A DNA stretch of 47,909 bases, taken from positions 1-47,909 of the IMG/VR virus record IMGVR_UViG_2718218171_000003; one strand, written 5' to 3'. This DNA comes from a virus. Lineage: Duplodnaviria; Heunggongvirae; Uroviricota; Caudoviricetes. The translations under genes were made by a program, and so were the position numbers. Every line of letters starts with the position of its first letter. Positions within the stretch are counted from its first letter, which is position 1. Below the pieces are notes generated by a model. That model had not been told where the DNA came from, ran no database searches, and worked only from the letters and a program-made list of their open reading frames with translations. This document shows positions 2,198-45,895 of this stretch, one piece after another.

Positions 2198-5100
2198 TTA
2201 TCTCGTAAAGCTAGTTTTATGACTTCCTGTTAGCTGACTGTCTTCATAATAAAATGCTCCACTAAACTCCTGTCGACCATAATGATGACTTGATGTGAGT
2301 GAGCCCCCTATAACGCCCTTTTCACCTAATAATGTCCAAACGATTTCAAAACCATTGTCCCTTAACATTGTTAAAAATGGTTCTTTTTTAACAAGTAGAT
2401 GCGGCTTTGAAGCATATACAGCTTCAGCTGCAAAGCAAACCATAGTTCCATTTTCATCATTGAAGCTACCCTCTACTTCCCCACTTTTTAATCCCATCTT
2501 TTCAAAGATTAAGTTACTAGGCTTCAAAAAATTCAAAGTTTCTATTTTTGATTTGTCGAACTCCTCTTCCCACAAATAATTAATCGAAGTGACACTAACA
2601 TCAGCAATCTTAGCTCCAGACTCCCGGTCTGTTACCGAAGTCCAGTCAGATCCACCATAATAATCTGATTTAAAAGACTTAAATGCTTCGGACCAATAGT
2701 ACTCCCTATTAAATAATTGGTATCTATCAGTACATTCCGGCATCCACCTGCCCATAAAGTCTTGAGCTATTGCCCAATATCTAAAATTTTCAAATTCTTC
2801 AACTTTAACGATATAACTTCTGATCTGATACCAAACCTCTTTTCGTGGGTGCCCCCAATCATCGTTTCCAATAATTTTTGGTTCTTTCCATGATGGATAA
2901 CTTTCTAATACTATCCATTCATCACCATTATCATCTTTAACTTCAATAAAAGCATATGAATTAGTTATAGTAGTAGAACTTTTAACCCAGTCTTCATTAG
3001 AGCAAGTCCAATCAAACACTTCATCATTAAGCCACCACATTTCTTTATTGCTTATTTTTTTCGTTCCAGTTTCTTTAAGTAAGATAGTGGGATCTATATC
3101 TCTTACGTAAGGCTCCCATGGCCCTTGGTATGGATTTTCCTTTCGTTCGTCACCATAACCTTCAAAACGAGTAAAATTATCGGCTAGCCTTGCCATGTAT
3201 TCATAATAAGCAATCCATTGGTATTTTTTACCAATCCGTTCTTGGAATGCCTCTCTACGTCCACGTCCAGTTCCTATTTGTTGGTCAAAATTACCATGCT
3301 TCTCCGGATCCCAACCAAGCTCTATAACACGATTGAATATAAATTGTTGAGCTAGTCGAAGATCAAAGTGTTTATCAGTTTCCAGCAGATTATTATTATG
3401 ATCCAGGTATGGCTCTATTTCATTTTCAAACTCACTTAACAGATCGTATGACAATGAATTCTTAAATAATTTCTTGCTCGCCTTTATTTCTTCCTGTGCT
3501 TTTCTACCGACCACACGACCAAATTTAATTCCTTCGCATTTATCATCATAAATGAAAGGATCTGTGGCATCATACAAATCTTTTTGTTGATCAGTTAGTT
3601 TACATTTGAAAGTTTTAAAAACTTGCTTACGGTCAACAGGGGTTTCATTAAACTTGCAACCAGACCAATCAGAATGATTATAATTTGTACCAATAGTATA
3701 TCGTGAAAAGTCACCACCTTCCATAATCGAGCTCCAGAGTTCCCGATAAGGTTCTTTATCATAAAGGGACTCTAGTTCCTCTTTTGAAGGAATCTTGTCA
3801 GGCCAAATGCTGTTGTAGGGTGGTCTAGTCTTGGATAATTCAATGCTTTCAAGTTCCAATCCAAGATGATTAGCAAATTCAATAATCTCTCTAGCATAAT
3901 CTCTAAGTAATATATTTGGATACACATACTCAGAACAAAATACCTTTTGGTAAACAGTTTCGGCTAAATATTTTAGTTCTTTAATATTATCAGTTCGCAA
4001 TGTACAGCCTAATGCAACTGCAAATATTCTTTCCCAAACGTAAGGATCATTTACACCATAAAACTTATCAATTATTTTTCTCAATACAGGAATTCTTGGC
4101 TCGAGTAAACTCACTAAAGCCTTGGTTGAGCAATCTCGAAGTTCTCGGTTACTAGAAGTTAAAAACCAGCATAAACTAGTTGCAACTAGCTCGATTGACT
4201 CATCCGAAACAAAGCTTTTATCTGTTCTGGCCCATGCCCAATCGATTAGATGCCTAAAAGCTGAGTCTTCACTATATTTATATTTAAGTTCTGTAGTCCA
4301 AAACGAATCTCGATTTGCCAAAGAATAATCTTTTAGCCAATCATGCAAGAAATTAGCATTAAAGGGATGGTCAACTAAACCTGAAATAGAGATCACTGCC
4401 TCGAGGAAATGATCAAAACTATCTTTAAATTTAAAAACATGTTCATTGATGAAAGGTCTAATTTTTTCGAAATCAATAGCCTTAATATCTCGCCATATCA
4501 AGCTATCAATAAAGGCTTCTAGTAATTTAAGATTATTGCTAAACTCCGGCAGAAATTCATAAAGCTCTTTTTCATACCTTTCTGGCAATTGAATAGACAG
4601 CGCCTCTACTATTCCCGATTTTATATAAAAATCACATTCATCATGAAAATATTTTTTCAGACGACCATCAGGCTTAAATTCACTTTCGATATTTTCAACA
4701 TCATTTAATAAAAAATTAACAGTTAAATGATCATCAAACCTTTCAAAAGCCACATAAACTACTTCCTCAGTAGAATTATCATCATTTCTCACTATGCCTT
4801 TAGTCAATAATCCTTCGTCAATCAAGGCGCTGAGGAAGGTTTTATCAGCAACATAATCATTAACTACAGATTGAACCACTGAGTGAGCATCTTTAAGTGA
4901 AATACTATTACGACCAATCTCTAATTTGAATTTTATGATTTCATTGAGAGCATCTTTAACAAGAGGAAAACTGGGATCGAATGCATATTTTCTTGGCGAT
5001 GCTAATGATTTATTTACCCCTTCCACTAAAAAGTTAAAAATATTTGAAATCCCATTAAATCCAACAGGCACTTTGGTTAAACCATTTTTCTTAATGCCTT

Positions 5101-11951: not shown

Positions 11952-14900
11952 TCAGCTGATACTGATGCCTGCGGTGGCTTTCTTCATCACCACAACCAGC
12001 AAATCGCTGATACTTGCTGTGGGATACCAGTCATTTACCAGCCATGCTGACACCGAAAACTCCAGCGTCATGTGACCGTGACCGGCAGGCATATCAATAA
12101 CGCCACTGTAAATCAGCGTATTATCCAGCGCGGTACGGTTATAAATTTCAGCACCGTTTTTCCGCACTATCAGACGGCATGAGGAGTAAATATCAGTATG
12201 CTCTCTCTCATGTTTAGCGCCGCTGAATGCCACCGCCGGAATAACAATCTGCCGGTCAAACGGCTGATCGTCATAAATCCTGACGGTAATGGTCCCTGAT
12301 GGCCACCGTTCCGGTGCACGGGAGTCCCGGGGGAAAGCTTTGCCCACTGTTTTAACGAGATCGCCTTCAATCTGGTTCGCGGACAGTTTTCCCAGAACCC
12401 GGCAGTTCTCGTTAATCGTGACGTTGTTGAGCGTCCCGGAGTTCGCATTCACGTTACCGCTGATATCGGCATTTTTCGCCGTCAGCCGCCCGTCCGGTGT
12501 CAGGGAAAATGCCGGAGGATTACCGCCGCTGGTAATGGTGGGAGCCGTCAGATATTTCAGGAACACTTCGTTCATGAATATCTGATCGCCCTGCCCAACA
12601 AACATCGGCTTTGTGTTGCCATTCGCAGGATTAATCATCGCAATCCTGTCTGCCGCCAGCAGCACCTGACTCTGCATGCCGTCAGGGGTGTTTTCAATAC
12701 CGGCACCAATACCCGCGATATAAAGGCGTCCGTCCTGCATCTGCTGCAGCTTCACAGCCCACATGCTGTTCAGGTTATTATTTGTATCAACCTGAACCTT
12801 CTGTATCTGCTGGATCGCTGCACTCTGGTCTTCCAGTTTCTTATTGACGGTCTGCGTGATTTCATTACTGACATCCGTGATGGACGTTCTGATTTCCGCC
12901 AGGTCAGGCGCAAGCTGACCGTTATCAATCTGCGTCCACAACTCCTGAGCCAGATGGGTTTTCCCTATCTCTCCTTTGAAAAAATCCAGATAGCCGGATG
13001 CATCATCACTCGGCTGGCCAACAGCCTCCACGAATGCCGATTTGCCAACGGTGTTCACACTGCGGATGTAAAAATAATAATCATGGCCCGGCTTGATATT
13101 GATACTGGCAGCTATCCAGTACAGCGCCGTGCCAAGATAGCGGGCTGTGGTTTCAACCTGCCTGATATCCGCAATCCGCTTTTCCGAGAACCAGAACTCA
13201 AACTGTACCGTCGGATCATAAACGGCAAGATACGGCGTGGCGGTTATCTGAAAATAGCCCGGCGTCAGCTCAATCCGCGACGGCGCTGCCGGTGCGGCAA
13301 TCCGGAACGATACCGATGCCGGATCGCCCTGCTGCCCCCAGGCATTTGCCGCCCGGACTGTCAGCCTGTAGTTTCCCAGCGCCAGTTGCGTGAAGCGGTA
13401 TGTGGTTTCCGTCGTCCTGGCCGTGCTGACCAGCCGCTCACTGCCGTCATCCGCTGCCACGGTCAGACGAAGCATAAAGCTCACGCCCTTCACCACCTTC
13501 GGCGTGTCCCATCGCGCCAGCACCTGATATTCCCCGCTGTCTGCGGTGACTTCGGCGGTCAGGTGCTGCACCGCTGGCGGCGTGACACCATTCACCGTGC
13601 CGCTCTGGTCGCCGTCAAAGTGCGCCCCGTTATCCACGATGGCCTCTTTCTCCGGCACATGCTGCACGGCGGTGATGGCATACGTGCCGTCGTCGTTCTC
13701 ACGGATACTCACGCAGCGGAACAGTCGCTGGCGCAGCGTCGGCAGCTTCAGCCCCCATACGCTGTATTCAGCAACACCGCCAGGAACACGGCTCACTTTT
13801 ACCTTCACGCCGTCGGTGACGGACTGAACCTCCACGCTGACCGGATTCCCCTGTCCGTCAACCAGGCTTATCAGCGTGATGCCGGAGGATGGCAGCGTGA
13901 TTTCACGGTCGAGCGTCAGCGTCCGCGTCTGGCTGTTCACCGCCAGCACGCGCCCGCCGATGCTGATACCCGCATAGTCATCATCACAGATTTCAATGAC
14001 ATCGCCCGGTACATGGCGAAGCCCTTCGGCACCCACGCTGAAGTCCACGGTCTGCGTTTCCAGCAGCTCCGTTTTAATCAGCCACAGCCCGGCGCGGTGT
14101 GCCTGCCCCCGGCTGGTACAGCCAAAGGCATCCATCTTCGTGACGTTACGACCGTAACGGGCAATGGCCTGCGTATCTTCAACAAGCTCTGTCGCCGTCT
14201 CCCAGCCGTTATCCGGGTCAATCCAGTTCACCTCAACGGCATTATGGCGGTCCTTCAGGGCGCTGAAGCTGTAGCGGAACGGCGCGCCATCATCCGGCAT
14301 CACCACATTACTGCGGTTATAGGTCCACACCTTATCCGACGGTCGGTCCTGCACGAACGTCAGCGTCTGCCCGTTCCATACCGGCATACAGCGCATCGCC
14401 GAGCAGAAATCACTGAGCACATCCCACGCCTTGCGCTGTGTGGTCAGGTACGCATTACAGGTGATGCGCGGCTCCGTGCCACCAAAGCCATCCGGCACCG
14501 ACTGGTCGCAATACTGGCCGATGACATACAGCGCCCATTTGTCCACATCCACCGCACCAAGACGTTTCCCCATGCCGTAGCGCGGATGGGTCAGCATATC
14601 CCACAGACACCAGGCCATGTTGTTGCTGTATGCCGGTTTAAACGTTCCGTCCCAGATACCGCTGTATTGCCGCGTCTGCGGGTTATAGTTCGACGGCACC
14701 TGCAGAATACGCCCGCGCAGATGATAATTACGGCTCACCTGCTGGCTGCCGAACTGCTCCGAATCCACCTGTACGCCGACCAGTGCCGTGTTCGGGTAGC
14801 ACTGTTTCACATCGATGATTTCGGTGTATGACGACCAGAGCGTTTTGTTCTGCAGCTGGTCTGTGGTGCTGTCCGGCGTCATCCTGCGCATCCGGATATT

Positions 14901-37783: not shown

Positions 37784-38481
37784 ACACTGGCTCCTTTCAG
37801 TCCGAACTTAGCTTTGATTTCTGCGATCTTCGCCAGAGCCTGTGCACGATTTAGAGGTCTACCGCCCATGACAGGAAGTTGTTTTACTGGTTCAGGTATA
37901 GCCTCACCACGGTTAATTCGCACGGTCATACAGGACAGTTCATCGGCAGCCTTGCGCCGTAATTCCGCGTCAGTCAACGCATTGGCCCGCATGTTCTGGT
38001 ACAGATTGGTAACCAGCCAGTAGTGCGCGTTTGATTTCCACGGATAAGACTCTGCATCTGGATACAGTCCACGCTTCCGGCAATACTCGTAAACCATATC
38101 AACCAGCTCGCTGACGTTTGGCAGCCCGGCGTTAACGGATGCTTCTTCCCGGCACCAAGAGACAAACTGCCCGGGTGATGGCAGGAATGGTCGATTCTGC
38201 CGACGGGCGACGCGCATTCCAGCGTTAACCTGTTCCATCGTGGTGATCCCATTTTCCCGGAAAGCCAGAACCCACTGGCGGCGGATTTCGTTCAGTTCAT
38301 TCTGGTCCCGGTTAGCCAGGCTCGCCGGGAAAGTTGCCAGTAACTGGCTGAACACACCATTGATAATCTGCGCTACCTGCTGTACCTGCGGCTTTTCGTC
38401 GTACTGTTCCGGCATGTTATTGGCGATCCGGCGCATCTGCTCACGGTCAAAATTAACCATCTGTGCGGCGATGTTTTTCAT
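37780..38481 (-). CDS. P: Replication protein P (helicase loader)
   Basis: 233-aa ORF MKNIAAQMVNFDREQMRRIANNMPEQYDEKPQVQQVAQIINGVFSQLL matching lambda P. Confidence 0.95.
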   Translation of the reverse strand: MKNIAAQMVNFDREQMRRIANNMPEQYDEKPQVQQVAQIINGVFSQLLATFPASLANRDQNELNEIRRQWVLAFRENGITTMEQVNAGMRVARRQNRPFLPSPGQFVSWCREEASVNAGLPNVSELVDMVYEYCRKRGLYPDAESYPWKSNAHYWLVTNLYQNMRANALTDAELRRKAADELSCMTVRINRGEAIPEPVKQLPVMGGRPLNRAQALAKIAEIKAKFGLKGASV

Positions 38482-39407
38482 AGCTCCACCCCGTAAATCC
38501 AGTCAGTGTTCGTCAGGTCGAGTTTTGGTTTGCCGGCTGTCACGCCAGCCTGTTGCTTGTTTCGGTTGATTTCGAGCTGTGTCCACTTGTCGCGGAGTTT
38601 GGCCGGACACAACACGTTACCGGACCAGAAGTTGTCCTGGCATGCCCAGCGGAACAGCACGCACATGTCGCGGTGGTTACGTCCGTCACGTTCACGCATC
38701 AGGCGGATATCGTTAGCCCACCCTGCAAAATTCGGTTTTCTAGCTGATGGCGCGATGGTCTTCACCATGTCAAACATCCACTCTGCGGCGGTCAGGTCTT
38801 CTGCTGTCCCCCACTTGCTGCCGCTCTGAATTGCAGCATTCGGTTTCTCCACAGGAAGATCGTTTTCTGGCTGGTCAGAGGATTCGCCAGAATTCTCTGA
38901 CGAAAAAGGTTTTATATTTTCTTTTGTTAGTTTGTCTTTTGTGTTTACCTGATTCGGGTAAATGCCTTTACCTGATTTAGGTAAACTTTTCTTACCTGAT
39001 TCAGGTAAATTTACCTCTTTCAGGTAAACTTTATTTTTCTTACCTGATTCGGGTAATGTTGACCATTCACTGACCACATTATTGACGCCGATATTCCGCC
39101 CGCTCTGAATTAAAATCCCACGCTTTACCAGAACACTTTTTGCAGCAGAACACTTGTGCGGCAATATCCCGGTCAATTCGGAAAGTTGCTCGTTGCTCAC
39201 CCAATCCAGTTTTTTATTAAAGCCATATGTTTTGCGCATGACAGCCAGGAAGACCAGAAGCTGGTGCTGTGTTAATCCGGCCAGCATCACAGCTTCCAGC
39301 AACTCATTTGCAATGCGCGTATAACCATCATCGAGATCTGCCACGCGCGGCTCCTTTTGTGCCACATCCGGCACTGGAAAATTGAATATCTCAGCAGTGT
39401 TTGCCAT
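38478..39407 (-). CDS. O: Replication initiator O
   Basis: 309 aa from MANTAEIFNFP...VADLDDGY with GGGAGG RBS, aligning with the lambda O N-terminus; C-terminal half near-identical to lambda O; track ORF extends 30 codons upstream. Confidence 0.95.
   Translation of the reverse strand: MANTAEIFNFPVPDVAQKEPRVADLDDGYTRIANELLEAVMLAGLTQHQLLVFLAVMRKTYGFNKKLDWVSNEQLSELTGILPHKCSAAKSVLVKRGILIQSGRNIGVNNVVSEWSTLPESGKKNKVYLKEVNLPESGKKSLPKSGKGIYPNQVNTKDKLTKENIKPFSSENSGESSDQPENDLPVEKPNAAIQSGSKWGTAEDLTAAEWMFDMVKTIAPSARKPNFAGWANDIRLMRERDGRNHRDMCVLFRWACQDNFWSGNVLCPAKLRDKWTQLEINRNKQQAGVTAGKPKLDLTNTDWIYGVEL
38945..39058. repeat. Replication origin iterons inside O (five about 19-bp repeats TTACCTGATTCGGGTAA-type) next to an AT-rich stretch
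   Basis: Five copies of (T/C)TTACCTNNTTNNGGTAAA at about 38945, 38966, 38991, 39010 and 39040; AT-rich segment at 38900-38940. Confidence 0.8.
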
Positions 39408-39493
39408 AATTCCTCCCGCAATGAGTGCGTTACGATTTGCACCTGAAAGTCGGTTCTGTTCCCGCAGACCGACTTTCGCCATTTCTGAACCTG

Positions 39494-40039
39494 TCATATT
39501 GCCCCCAGCATGGTGGTAACCATCGCCATTAATGGACCAGCCAGATCCGGGTCCACACGAAACATCGACACAATACCTTCACTCATTTCCTTCAGTTTCT
39601 GGTGGCGTGGTGCGTTGAGAATGACCGCCTGCTTTGCCTCACTGAGTTCCTTTTCCATTTCAGCCAGCCGAGCTATGAAGCTATCCTGCTCAACCAGGTG
39701 GCCGCGATATTCCAGCGGTAGTACCGCCAGAATTGCCGGGGTCAGTTCACGCACGTTATTTCGGTATTTTTCAGAATCGAATTTGTTATCGAGGAAGCGG
39801 AACAACTTCTGGCGTGCACGGCTGACATCATCAGGGAAATCGATGGTGCCGCCGCCCAGCTCCCGATACTCATTCACAATGAGTGCGGCAACAACATCCT
39901 GATTATCTGCAGCCGACCAGGCGCGAACGGCATCACGGATTTTTTCGTGGCCTGGCGCCTGTTTTGTTTGAGAACGATTTATCACCGCAGTCGGGCTAAA
40001 TCCGCTAGTCTGTTGGTATGTAAGTGGTTGCATAGTCAT
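39494..40039 (-). CDS. 181-aa early-operon protein in the cII position, function unknown
   Basis: ORF between cro-like gene and O with AAGG RBS; not lambda CII by sequence or size. Confidence 0.5.
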   Translation of the reverse strand: MTMQPLTYQQTSGFSPTAVINRSQTKQAPGHEKIRDAVRAWSAADNQDVVAALIVNEYRELGGGTIDFPDDVSRARQKLFRFLDNKFDSEKYRNNVRELTPAILAVLPLEYRGHLVEQDSFIARLAEMEKELSEAKQAVILNAPRHQKLKEMSEGIVSMFRVDPDLAGPLMAMVTTMLGAI

Positions 40040-40063: not shown

Positions 40064-40291
40064 TTAGGCGGCAGAATTACTCGCGTTAAACAATGGTGCG
40101 AGGTCGGGACGAATATCTGCTGGTTTAATCTTTCCACCAGTGGCTGAGACAATTTTCATTACATAGCGGGCATCAATTCCGCCACCGTGTAGCCAACGCC
40201 AAACAGTGGGTTGGGCTACACCGCATAGATCTGCCAGTCGTTTTTGACTACCTGTAATACTGATTGCGAGTTGAATGGTTTGATTTGTCAT
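40064..40291 (-). CDS. cro: Cro-like HTH regulator
   Basis: 75 aa from ATG at 40291; HTH-like QKRLADLCGVAQPTVWRWLHGG; divergent from cI. Confidence 0.75.
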   Translation of the reverse strand: MTNQTIQLAISITGSQKRLADLCGVAQPTVWRWLHGGGIDARYVMKIVSATGGKIKPADIRPDLAPLFNASNSAA

Positions 40292-40322
40292 TATCAATTC
40301 CTATTGGTATTGCAATGAATAG

Positions 40323-40351
40323 ATAATAGCAATGCGTATTAACTCAATCAA
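40323..40351 (-). promoter_or_regulatory. pR-like sigma70 promoter driving cro and replication genes
   Basis: Minus strand -35 TTGATT (40351-40346), 17-nt spacer, -10 TATTAT (40328-40323); AGGA RBS before the cro ATG. Confidence 0.6.
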
Positions 40352-40365
40352 TAGCAAAACGTGTT

Positions 40366-40393
40366 TTGACCATCAATACGCAAGCGTATAAAT
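40366..40393 (+). promoter_or_regulatory. pRM-like promoter for cI, predicting a leaderless transcript
   Basis: -35 TTGACC (40366-40371), 16-nt spacer, -10 ATAAAT (40388-40393); predicted start site at or next to the cI ATG at 40402, which has no Shine-Dalgarno sequence. Confidence 0.5.
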
Positions 40394-40401
40394 TAAAACT
40401 T

Positions 40402-41094
40402 ATGAAAAAAGAAACTCTTGCTGATCGCTTAAACCTAGCGATGGAACAATCTGGAATGTCTCAAGGCGCTCTTGCAAAGGCGTCTGGCGTAGCTCAACCC
40501 ACAATCTGGAGACTGACAAGCGGCAACGCGCGCGGCTCAACAAAAATTGTTGAAATAGCTAATGCATTGGGTGTTCGAACAGAGTGGCTCTCATCAGGCA
40601 TAGGCCCGATGAGAAATGACGGTCAACAATCAGGGAAGCCTGCTGTCAACCATTCCAAATACTTCAAGATTGACGTTCTTGATATAGAAGTCAGTGCCGG
40701 GCCGGGTGTCATCAATCGTGAGTTTGTAGAAGTTCTACGCTCGGTTGAGTACTCGTTTGACGATGCTCGTCACATGTTCGATGGCAGGAAGGCAGAAAAT
40801 ATCCGCATCATTAACGTGCGTGGTGACAGCATGTCAGGAACGATCGAACCAGGTGATCTGCTGTTCGTTGATATCACGGTTAAATCTTTCGACGGTGATG
40901 GCATCTATGCGTTTCTGTACGACGACACCGCCCATGTAAAGCGCCTGCAAATGATGAAGGATAAGCTGCTGGTTATCTCTGATAACAAGAGCTACTCACC
41001 GTGGGACCCGATCGAGAAAGACGAGATGAACCGGGTGTTCATCTTCGGTAAGGTTATTGGGAGCATGCCCCAGACGTACAGGAAACATGGATAA
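40402..41094 (+). CDS. cI: CI-type repressor (N-terminal HTH, C-terminal LexA-like S24 autopeptidase)
   Basis: HTH MSQGALAKASGVAQPTIWRL; Ala-Gly cleavage site in EVSAGPG; catalytic Ser in VRGDSMSG and Lys in HVKRL. Confidence 0.9.
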   Translation: MKKETLADRLNLAMEQSGMSQGALAKASGVAQPTIWRLTSGNARGSTKIVEIANALGVRTEWLSSGIGPMRNDGQQSGKPAVNHSKYFKIDVLDIEVSAGPGVINREFVEVLRSVEYSFDDARHMFDGRKAENIRIINVRGDSMSGTIEPGDLLFVDITVKSFDGDGIYAFLYDDTAHVKRLQMMKDKLLVISDNKSYSPWDPIEKDEMNRVFIFGKVIGSMPQTYRKHG

Positions 41095-41174
41095 TCAGTA
41101 CTGTGCTGATGAGGCTTTTGGTTAATGCGCTGAAAGAATTCTTTATAAAAATAACATTACGGGAAAGGCAAAAA

Positions 41175-41444
41175 ATGAGTGATAAAAAACTTATTAAAAA
41201 ATCAAATAACTGTGTAGATGCATATGCTGATGCATTTGGATATTCATCTTTTGGGGAAGATGACGATCGCTTAGGCTCCATATCTTTCTTTCAGCATGTT
41301 ACAGAATGGGACGCTGATGGTAGTAATGACACTGAAAGCGTAAAGTACAACATTGCAACAATTCGCATGACGGAAGATTTAATGCTTAAACTCGCTGACT
41401 TTATTCGCGATCAGCATGATAGAGCTAAAACCAATAAGTCATAA
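41175..41444 (+). CDS. Hypothetical 89-aa protein, first gene after cI (rex position)
   Basis: ATG at 41175 with GGAAAGG RBS; AT-rich; no recognisable motif. Confidence 0.45.
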   Translation: MSDKKLIKKSNNCVDAYADAFGYSSFGEDDDRLGSISFFQHVTEWDADGSNDTESVKYNIATIRMTEDLMLKLADFIRDQHDRAKTNKS

Positions 41445-41452
41445 TATTAACA

Positions 41453-41893
41453 ATGAAACACGGTTATTACGAAGCTCCAAACCTAACTGAAAAGCTTGAA
41501 CAAGCGGCAAGATCATCATCTTTGCACACCGCAGCATTTTCTCAATCAGCTGGTATGTCTGGCGGTAATGTACCTATGCTACAATCAAGTGGTAGCGGTG
41601 GCTCTGGGAGTAATAATGTGCTTGAATCGAAAGTTGCAAAGCTTGAGTCTGATGTGTCCTACATCCGACGTGACGTTGATGAGCTCAAGACAGATGTCAA
41701 ATCTATCGACAGAAACATGATCGCTGTTCTGGAGCGACTCGATTCAATAAAAGAGTCACTAGCCAAAAAACCATCCATCGATGCTGTCGATAGAAAGATT
41801 TCAGACGCAAAGCTTGCGGTATTGCTTGGTGTTCCAGCAATCATCGCTGCAGGAACAGGGCTTTATAAGCTATCAATGTACTTTTTTCTTTAG
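41453..41893 (+). CDS. 146-aa protein with Gly/Ser linker, coiled coil and C-terminal transmembrane anchor (XhlA-like architecture)
   Basis: SSGSGGSGS linker, heptad-like LESKVAKLESDVSYIRRDVDELKTDVKSIDRNMIAVLERLDSIKESL, C-terminal LAVLLGVPAIIAAGTGLYKL; AT-rich. Confidence 0.5.
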   Translation: MKHGYYEAPNLTEKLEQAARSSSLHTAAFSQSAGMSGGNVPMLQSSGSGGSGSNNVLESKVAKLESDVSYIRRDVDELKTDVKSIDRNMIAVLERLDSIKESLAKKPSIDAVDRKISDAKLAVLLGVPAIIAAGTGLYKLSMYFFL

Positions 41894-41982
41894 TGCTTAA
41901 GAAACTGCTCGCCACCTTGCATTAGGCAAAGCGATTTTTCATTCCCTATTACCCTTTCTTAACCAATCATCTAAACCCTGCC

Positions 41983-42036
41983 CCCGTGAACTGACCCCCG
42001 AAAGTTGGACAGTTCACGGGCCCGGGTTTTCTTTTG
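41983..42036 (+). terminator. Terminator-like hairpin ending the cI operon
   Basis: Perfect 11-bp stem CCCGTGAACTG / CAGTTCACGGG with 16-nt loop, then CCCGGGTTTTCTTTTG. Confidence 0.55.
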
Positions 42037-42173
42037 CCTCCCCTCATCACACACCGTTCAAAAAACCACCACAACCCCGCTTCGGTTATCGCTATGCGAT
42101 GCAAGTCACAAAATTAATTCTTTTTGCTATCAAACATTTAATATCAAAACACATCTAGCAATAGCAATAAGTA

Positions 42174-42202
42174 TTGATATCATCAATAGCAATAGCTATT
42201 AT
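42174..42202 (+). promoter_or_regulatory. pL-like promoter with overlapping operator repeats (OL)
   Basis: -35 TTGATA (42174-42179), 17-nt spacer, -10 TATTAT (42197-42202); inverted repeat AATAGC-AATA-GCTATT across the -10; AATAGCAAT motif shared with the cI-cro intergenic region. Confidence 0.55.
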
Positions 42203-42395
42203 CACCATATCGCAACAACACAACGATACGGCAACCACCTGATTCACCGTTGCGATGACCGCTTAGATCCGCAGCTTGAATTTCAGCAGGCTCAGGGGAG
42301 TGCGAGGGGTGAAGCGGACGCGTGAACGTCGGTGTGACCAGCTGAAATTAACTCAACACTTCATACCTCAGTCGCTTCAACGAGGCGGCTTAGTT

Positions 42396-42686
42396 ATGAC
42401 AACCGGCGGCCATCCACCGCCTGAATACGCGCAGAAGTCTCTATATGTTCAGCAGCCCAGCTTACGGGCAGGAGTTTTTATGGTTCATCAACATTACGGA
42501 ACGCAGACCGTTAATCGCGGTGCGGTCATGCCAGGAATGCTGGTCAAACACAAAGATGGTACCTGGACTGCATCAGCTAATTTACGCGGACGGCTATATC
42601 TGCATCGCGGCATCGAGCGCACTTATACCCGTGATTTGCTCGTGGAAGTTTTTCTCGACGGACGCGGTAACGGCCTGAATCACTAA
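42396..42686 (+). CDS. Hypothetical 96-aa protein, first gene of the pL operon
   Basis: ATG at 42396 with GAGG RBS; track ORF extends upstream to a TTG at 42276; no recognisable motif. Confidence 0.4.
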
Positions 42687-42761
42687 TCCCCTTTCCTGTT
42701 TTCCTAATCAGCCTGGCATTTCGCGGGCGATATTTTCACAGCCATTTTCAGGAGTTCAGCC

Positions 42762-43058
42762 ATGAACGCTTATTACATTCAGGATCGTCTTGAGGCTCAG
42801 AGCTGGGCGCGTCACTACCAGCAGATCGCCCGTGAAGAGAAAGAGGCAGAACTGGCAGACGACATGGAAAAAGGTCTTCCACAGCACCTGTTTGAATCAC
42901 TCTGCATCGATCATTTGCAACGCCACGGGGCCAGCAAAAAAGCCATTACCCGTGCGTTTGATGACGACGTTGAGTTTCAGGAGCGCATGGCAGAACACAT
43001 CCGGTACATGGTTGAAACAATTGCTCACCACCAGGTTGATATTGATTCAGAGGTATAA
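42762..43058 (+). CDS. gam: Gam (RecBCD inhibitor), 98-aa form
   Basis: [56 protein letters not shown] matching lambda Gam. Confidence 0.95.
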
Positions 43059-44526: not shown

Positions 44527-44681
44527 CGCATCCTCACGATAATATCCGGGTAGGCGCGATCACTTTCGTCTACTCCATTACAAAGCGAGGCTGGGTATTT
44601 CCCGGCCTTTCTGTTATCAGAAATCCACTGAAAGCACAGCGGCTGGCTGAGAAGATAAATAATAAACAGGAGGATATATGA
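44517..44681 (+). CDS. 54-aa ORF coupled to exo (overlap) and to the downstream DndB-like gene (ATGA)
   Basis: [54 protein letters not shown] translated by hand; below the ORF-track cutoff. Confidence 0.35.
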
Positions 44682-45742: not shown

Positions 45743-45895
45743 TGAATCAACATTGTCTCATATCAGCATGCTGTACGGCGTCTTTAAGGAACGGTGAACA
45801 TGAAAAGCAAAATCATCAGGGAGCTACAGGCTCCTTTTTTATTGTTCGCATTCACCCTCAAGCGTATTAACCAACAATTTAGGGATTAATGGAAG

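Follow-up and report, generated by a model that had tools for sequence, protein, structure and literature searches.

The pL leader of the lambdoid phage genome analyzed here (an IMG/VR virus record, studied over its full 47,909 nt and called the window in the following) contains a 96-nt RNA element, designated X, for which we see about an even chance that it is a cis-acting antiterminator, put-like in its action and unrelated to the put RNAs in sequence and fold. This reading is founded on the position of X within the leader and on its association with put and nut signals.

The pL region and its leader

The list of open reading frames together with family searches identified the window as a lambdoid phage genome in reverse orientation (Table 1). 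On the 3' side of cI follow two moron-like ORFs, a terminator-like inverted repeat, OL/pL with its leader and, on the plus strand, kil, gam, bet and exo. The nearest sequenced phages are members of Bievrevirus (such as 4A7 and Perceval) and the PhiR series, none of which has an annotated N gene. Within the O-like gene, a 22-nt iteron (TTACCTGATTCAGGTAA-like) occurs five times (38940-39056), as expected for a lambda-type replication origin. The two ORFs between cI and the terminator (41103-41893) belong to phrog_4231 and phrog_3556, the latter with a coiled-coil and a C-terminal hydrophobic tail, and relatives carry a SIR2-family protein, a SocA-domain antitoxin or an ASCH-domain protein at this position; the slot is variable and probably expressed in the lysogen, and perhaps accommodates defence or exclusion genes. 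Furthermore, the stretch between the terminator of the cI operon and OL (42022-42114) is 92-100% conserved across prophages with differing OL/pL. It overlaps a 45-aa ORF on the minus strand, and a small minus-strand CDS is annotated in the corresponding region of phage Turner.

An earlier note on this DNA had described a pL-like promoter overlapping an inverted repeat, and both descriptions are confirmed: the two hexamers match the sigma-70 consensus at 10 of 12 positions, the top score of the region in a promoter scan, and the inverted repeat extends over part of the spacer and of the -10 hexamer. The assignment of an operator to pL is likewise supported. The 49-nt OL/pL block recurs, with 73% identity, in the OR/pR block between cro and cI (40325-40373), which fits an OL/OR operator pair. 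Moreover, in approximately half of 69 distinct related IMG/VR sequences the OL/pL block differs from that of the window, while both flanks are more than 90% conserved; such switching between versions within constant flanks corresponds to the behavior of an immunity-specific operator.

In the pL operon, kil is the first true gene. Its product, which the earlier note had rightly considered unlike N, matched phrog_294 (E = 1.2e-38), and model NF008465 scored 61.9 bits against it, which is under the curated cut-off of 92, and it is therefore regarded as a relative rather than an equivalog. Position 1 of NF008465 aligns to the methionine at 42480 (residue 29 of the 96-aa form proposed before), a 207-nt CDS in RefSeq begins at the same ATG, and AGGAG lies five bases upstream of it. 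Based on this alignment and the RefSeq CDS, the leader comprises approximately 270 nt (42209-42479) and not about 190 nt, as the earlier note had concluded from a start at ATG 42396. This codon is present, but as a start of Kil it did not hold up, and it is located within a conserved hairpin module.

Table 1. Coordinates of features in the window that are discussed in the text.
Feature	Position	Strand	Remark
O-like replication gene	38478-39497	minus	
cII analogue	39494-40039	minus	YdaT-type
cro	40064-40297	minus	YdaS-type
cI repressor	40366-41094	plus	S24 peptidase domain
Terminator-like inverted repeat I6, then T-run	41973-42030	plus	24-nt arms; closes cI-moron unit upstream of OL
OL/pL region	42160-42208	plus	promoter scan; 49-nt repeat with OR/pR
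Motif AATAGCAAT	42160-42168 and 42185-42193		in OL/pL region
pL -35, TTGATA	42174-42179	plus	17 nt to -10
pL -10, TATTAT	42197-42202	plus	
Inverted repeat AATAGC-AATA-GCTATT	42185-42200		overlaps pL spacer and -10 hexamer
5' leader segment	42209-42253	plus	C-rich, G-poor; start near 42209 inferred
Element X	42254-42349	plus	96 nt; candidate cis-acting antiterminator RNA
Hairpin Xa	42273-42278 with 42287-42292	plus	extended by 42269-42271 with 42294-42296
Xa loop AAUUUCAG	42279-42286	plus	
Xa-Xb linker GGGGAGUGCGAGGGGUG	42297-42313	plus	G-rich; 15 of 17 bases invariant in 18 aligned sequences
Hairpin Xb	42314-42320 with 42327-42333	plus	
X tail	42334-42349	plus	last 8 nt (42342-42349) complementary to Xa loop
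Hairpin module	42362-42424	plus	CAUACC, H1, UUAGUUAUGAC, H2
CAUA	42362-42365		invariant; can pair with UAUG 42395-42398
H1	AGUCGCUUC 42370-42378, GAGGCGGCU 42382-42390	plus	loop AAC
H2	GGCGG 42405-42409, CCGCC 42417-42421	plus	loop CCAUCCA; AUG 42396 between H1 and H2
kil	42480-42686	plus	68 aa; KilR-family FtsZ/cell-division inhibitor; Shine-Dalgarno AGGAG 42470-42474
gam	42762	plus	pL operon, after kil
bet	43064	plus	pL operon, after kil
exo	43846	plus	pL operon, after kil
Weaker terminator	44587-44609	plus	terminator scans
First strong intrinsic terminator downstream of pL	45818-45836	plus	AGGGAGCTACAGGCTCCTT then TTTTATTG

The leader is a mosaic of three parts, namely a 5' segment, element X and the hairpin module. 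The 5' segment is tied to the type of promoter; in an O157:H7 prophage with another pL, the sequence differs up to approximately 42242, and homology between immunity types starts at approximately 42243. The first 23 nt of the leader resemble the start of the pL leader of Salmonella phage S9-5, and ATCGCAAC (42209-42216) is complementary to GTTGCGAT (42249-42256) according to the sequence and alifold, a pairing that covariation does not support.

That the leader is long and structured, as stated in the earlier note, found support for local hairpins (Xa, Xb, H1 and H2) and none in the folding energy of the leader as a whole. Folding of the entire leader yielded z = -0.71 (42209-42479), and a shorter segment (42205-42400) yielded z = -1.97, whereas covariation backs Xa, Xb and H1, and the H1/H2 module reached z = -3.6. 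For X, folding energies were no better than those of shuffled sequences (z +0.28 to -1.62), and the minimum free energy folds of four X variants contained Xa and Xb in each case. The complementarity between the Xa loop and the tail could represent a pseudoknot or an alternative pairing; it lacks covariation support because both sides hardly vary.

Conservation of element X

At an identity of at least 90%, X was found in 2209 of 5426 complete E. coli genomes (about 40%). It was also found in 16 GenBank phages, where it is either unannotated or absorbed into over-long Kil CDS calls. An HMM of X furthermore revealed a diverged copy in IMG/VR contig L240, and a second clade was recovered, comprising 12 IMG/VR contigs, obtained with a pattern that excluded the window type, and one contig from a metagenome scan. 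The high identity of X within E. coli could be due to recent spread and not to selection. The two clades are only 80-82% identical, and the differences between them allow the predicted hairpins to be assessed. Changes in Xa (AGCUUG/CAGGCU versus CACUUG/CAGGUG) and in Xb (A-U versus G-C) are compensated, and the other differences fall into the Xb loop and unpaired positions, with the exception of the loop-closing pair 67-74 of Xb, which is not formed by the second clade.

Across 18 distinct X sequences, 91.9% of cells were paired, compared to 23-44% when the partners were slid. Three pairs have changed on both sides, and several single changes are wobble-compatible (C-G/U-G and A-U/G-U). The observed covariation score was reached by none of 500 shuffles, a control that overstates significance for related sequences. 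One further variant of X shows a change from a G-G mismatch to U-G in Xb, and the polymorphisms within the E. coli clade are mostly wobble-compatible. As judged from these alignments, pairing in X survives sequence change in both hairpins; since only two clades are available, the three compensated pairs may reflect few independent events. C42293/G42314 was rejected as a covarying pair, as the intermediate haplotype is C-A and not U-G. A third clade was found neither with two exclusion patterns in IMG/VR nor in the metagenome scan (6 contigs, all of known types), and a species-wide genome scan with Kil (24 loci) yielded no new types of X.

The same bases overlap the Arg-rich frame (RGVKRTRERR) in which the earlier note had seen a reminder of N-type antiterminators. 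The frame does exist, running from TTG 42276 in phase into ATG 42396 and kil, and an N-like antiterminator, possibly fused to Kil, could in principle start at this TTG or at GTG 42309. Its sequence KRTRERR is reminiscent of the arginine-rich motif of lambda N, GGGGAG is found 8 nt upstream of the GTG, and the amino acids encoded by this frame are left unchanged by the three commonest polymorphisms in 42276-42347, a small point in its favor; these polymorphisms are equally compatible with the RNA structure. However, conserved N-like coding is contradicted by the variants: in 23 of 70 distinct E. coli-type sequences (the 70 count the window and an unrelated outlier), the frame no longer connects to ATG 42396 and kil, owing either to a stop (C42369T) or to the insertion of 5 nt after 42347. 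In the diverged clade, TAA comes directly after the candidate GTG start, and the changes preserve RNA pairs rather than amino acids. Pfam, PHROGs and NCBIfam recognize only Kil and no family in the Arg-rich extension, among 5.8 billion proteins the Arg-rich part occurs only in near-identical E. coli gene calls, and neither a boxA nor a second copy of any hairpin elsewhere was found. In view of the stops, the frameshifts and the loss in the second clade, an N-like protein with an arginine-rich motif was rejected, and we regard it as scarcely conceivable. The bases of the frame are conserved in the diverged clade as RNA hairpins and not as coding sequence. A 5-nt duplication (TCAAC) after 42347, where X ends on its 3' side (42343-42358), occurs in some E. 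coli variants and changes CAACTCAAC to CAACTCAACTCAAC.

X, put and nut in pL leaders

Searches for known antitermination signals were negative, in agreement with the earlier note, which had found no convincing boxA or boxB. With one mismatch allowed, boxA (CGCTCTTTA-like) matched 14 times in the window compared to 18.8 matches expected by chance, and neither the pR transcript nor the part of the pL transcript past 42209 contains any of these matches. No second copy, as would be expected of a boxB shared by the pL and pR transcripts, was detected for the Xb hairpin, for the G-rich stretch at the end of the linker and start of Xb, or for the whole of X, and a covariance model of X (R2) identified a single copy in the window (122.6 bits) and none in its pR operon. 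Searching the window by tblastn with phi80 N and HK022 Nun, as well as with lambda, P22 and phi21 N, gave nothing significant. A conventional N gene or nut site is missing from the window, as had been suspected.

X could also be a nut-like site, at which a host factor, or a phage protein encoded outside the pL-proximal region, would load onto RNA polymerase as N does at boxB. Two small hairpins with conserved loops could bind a protein, and the G-rich linker is nearly invariant in the aligned sequences. Yet X is accompanied by neither a boxA nor a conserved ORF, relatives of N or Nun are absent from the window, and the pR operon has no second site, which makes such a site very improbable.

The earlier note had also suggested looking for put-like RNA elements. 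We used a covariance model (R1) of 13 put RNAs, which comprise putL and putR of HK022, that of HK639, and relatives from Salmonella, Erwinia, Enterobacter, Pantoea and Siccibacter phages. With filters off, R1 retrieved nothing in 42200-42480, and its best match over the whole window (11.4 bits, E = 0.19) lies in an unrelated region. A put HMM had no match in the window at E<=10, and the put motifs GAACGGC, GUCGG, GGCGGG and CAAU are absent from X. Therefore, an HK022-type put is absent, and the put position is occupied by a different conserved RNA, X. Rfam, which has no put family, returned chance-level matches only, both in a gathering scan of the window and in a scan of 41850-42800 at E<=10. 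With regard to prophage sRNAs, the Rfam scans ruled out AgvB and AsxR, and Pas and HnrS have been described at other prophage positions; none of the four corresponds to the pL leader locus.

In a census of 135 lambdoid pL leaders sharing the 5' sequence GCTGAGSGAAGTTAGCCAGCG, the next element was boxA/nut in 74, put in 48 and X in 13 of these leaders, and no other element was found. Nine pL promoter types, defined as exact 35-mers, carry X; for seven of them, leaders with put and/or boxA exist as well, and five are combined with each of the three cassettes. The pL of HK639 itself is followed by put in HK639 and by X in L248 and L255, and second-clade X is located in the type of pL leader that HK639, phi80 and HK225 have. 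In L240, the 5' and 3' flanks are those of HK639, and X replaces the put core between them. Conversely, the order in L138 (pL, putL, module, small ORF, kil, gam) is that of the window with put instead of X. Since X is found at the exact position of boxA/nut or put, it is probably a third kind of antitermination signal, and we infer that X would be the third allele of an antitermination cassette which, like put, has no protein partner.

A likeness of X to the 3' part of the put-like region of HK639 that had been noticed by eye (CAGCAG...GCGAGGGG) was dismissed, as the alignment is no better than those of shuffled sequences. The X motif CAGCAGG...GUGCGAGGGGUG is repeated in CAGCAGCUCUUUGCGAGGGGCUGACGG, the flank on the 3' side of put or X. 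This flank is found in L240 (reverse strand, about 905-935) and in HK639 (L010:2583-2612), and is included in the annotated 126-nt put-like RNA of HK639.

In all 8 second-clade loci with enough sequence, X is followed at a distance of 0.7-1.9 kb by a strong intrinsic terminator (ACCCGCTCCGGCGGGTTTTTT in L252), which is located just ahead of the hairpin module, kil and recombination genes. No conserved or N-like ORF was found between X and the terminator in these loci; the ORFs in this interval vary and include an HNH endonuclease, a 141-aa protein and unrelated small acidic proteins. In the window clade, X abuts the module, the intervening stretch including the terminator is absent, and terminator scans detected no intrinsic terminator between X and kil-gam-bet-exo in the window. 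The terminators at 44587 and 45818 are possible targets of readthrough in the window phage, and given the lack of a terminator before kil-gam-bet-exo, X may be dispensable there or be kept for other reasons.

X might then even be functionless in the window phage, a mosaic filler left behind when recombination removed the usual early genes and tL1, with kil, gam, bet and exo expressed from pL without antitermination. This would agree with the lack of a strong terminator between pL and exo, with a module that follows a terminator in relatives and X in the window, and with the near-identity of X in the 2209 genomes, which is matched by its neighbors (kil is approximately 100% identical). On the other hand, a filler would not be expected to keep its helices through compensatory changes across the two clades, to show mostly wobble-compatible polymorphisms within the E. 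coli clade, or to be retained in at least 10 promoter contexts, and we consider it improbable.

Two further observations concern X-bearing contigs. In one subtype (L246:10355-10700; also L247, L250, L252 and L255), X is followed by a conserved stretch of approximately 330 nt that lacks a long ORF and opens with a strong Shine-Dalgarno sequence and the mini-ORF ATG AAG CAC TAA. The contig L252 ends (14356-14500) in the host sRNA pair SraC/RyeA and SdsR/RyeB; thus, this prophage adjoins the ryeA/ryeB locus.

The hairpin module downstream of X is itself conserved and is widespread among the early-left operons of lambdoid phages. A pattern for it retrieved 123 stretches, 98 of them distinct, from the loci examined, nearly all of which are true copies. 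In H1, 6-7 pairs covary, and as many as six pair types occur (module z = -3.59). In relatives other than the window type, it nearly always directly follows an intrinsic terminator, e.g., tL1A in phi80 (module at L094:2491-2553) and terminators in HK225 (L091:2865-2927), HK639 (L010, about 3650-3770) and many prophages. H1 together with the base helix of CAUA and UAUG would bury GAGG and AUG 42396 in the predicted fold. The peptide starting at this AUG (MTTGGHPPP) was rejected as a conserved stalling peptide, as the hairpins are kept and the peptides differ (MTRLSTALL, MKRLSNRN and MRRRPSTA in relatives), indels between the AUG and H2 shifting the frame. As a guess, offered with low confidence, the module may gate the translation of a short ORF in the leader, where the delayed-early genes begin.

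Possible action of X and comparison with known systems

RNA initiated at pL near 42209 would carry X within its first 50-140 nt. If X is a cis-acting antiterminator, it would need no phage protein, and the folded nascent X would bind the elongation complex, which would then resist pausing and intrinsic terminators, and probably also Rho. In the second clade, X would carry the polymerase through the tL1-type terminator ahead of the module, kil and the recombination genes. In the window clade, the only targets left for X would be the long untranslated leader and the terminators at 44587 and 45818 toward xis/int; it might serve mainly against Rho in the leader and for reaching xis/int, or be retained without need. 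Early antitermination, whose mechanism the earlier note had left unresolved, would accordingly be unconventional, as it supposed, with the answer lying in the leader, while the idea of a protein encoded there was wrong.

Alternatively, X could be a cis-regulatory RNA of another kind and not a processive antiterminator, such as a Rho-dependent attenuator or, for the long untranslated leader, a Rho antagonist; it could also stabilize the RNA or direct its processing, or the 5' leader could release it as a base-pairing RNA or sponge. The conserved structure of X is consistent with this, as are the first 40 nt of the leader, which are C-rich, G-poor and rut-like, the length of the untranslated leader (approximately 270 nt), the lack of a terminator nearby in the window clade, and the identity of the first gene, a toxic division inhibitor for which tight control would be advantageous. 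However, the C-rich segment lies outside X, in the part of the leader that is promoter-specific, and this alternative leaves unexplained both the three-way exclusivity with two antitermination signals and the presence, in the second clade, of terminators before delayed-early genes without N or put. We therefore consider it unlikely, although it deserves more weight than the other alternatives.

Returning to X as an antiterminator, a wider claim would be that it represents an undescribed class of protein-independent antiterminator RNA, the second in phages after put and structurally unrelated to it, which prophages carry in approximately 40% of complete E. coli genomes, and that N-nut, put and X are swapped at one hotspot in the pL leader. 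We rate this slightly below an even chance. Among phages, RNA that reprograms RNA polymerase by itself is known essentially from a single family, put. If true, the claim would allow a direct comparison of how unrelated folds reach the same outcome, provide a new compact antitermination part for synthetic operons, and explain the early program of very common E. coli prophages (Bievrevirus/DLP12-like) that have neither N nor put. The three-way exchange of cassettes under identical promoters constitutes a natural experiment, and the hypothesis is easy to test. Even if X is no antiterminator, X and H1/H2 are two conserved structured RNAs in thousands of genomes that are unannotated or mis-annotated as Kil coding sequence.

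Among known systems, the lambda-type nutL (boxA and boxB) with N, as annotated in phi80, is an alternative at the same leader position and provides readthrough of the tL1-type terminators that precede this hairpin module and kil. X differs from it in having no boxA, no N and no conserved accompanying ORF. Processive antitermination that is based on or assisted by RNA has also been described for EAR in the eps operons of Bacillus and for conAn-type systems in conjugative elements (PMC8191782). These are comparable in concept, i.e., in a leader RNA that makes the polymerase terminator-resistant over a long operon, and they belong to other hosts and element types.

The closest comparison is with put, which is recognized by cis action without phage proteins and by mutations in the zinc-binding domain of rpoC that block it. 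HK639 presumably has a single copy of put, in the left operon, and X is likewise a single copy in the left operon. The putL and putR RNAs of HK022 are cis-acting antiterminators that bind the zinc-binding domain of beta', and the structure of put on RNA polymerase was solved in 2022 (PMC9378689); put-like RNAs in HK639 and HK75 are attributed to King 2011, as cited there. X has no similarity to put in sequence or by model, with alignments to put leaders no better than those of shuffled sequences, and its loop-to-tail complementarity is missing in put. Nevertheless, X resembles put in size and likewise consists of two stem-loops joined by a G-rich linker. It starts approximately 45 nt past the inferred pL start of a lambdoid phage that lacks N and has intrinsic terminators downstream, and it is located, like put, just downstream of pL in the same leader, where the two are interchangeable under identical promoters.
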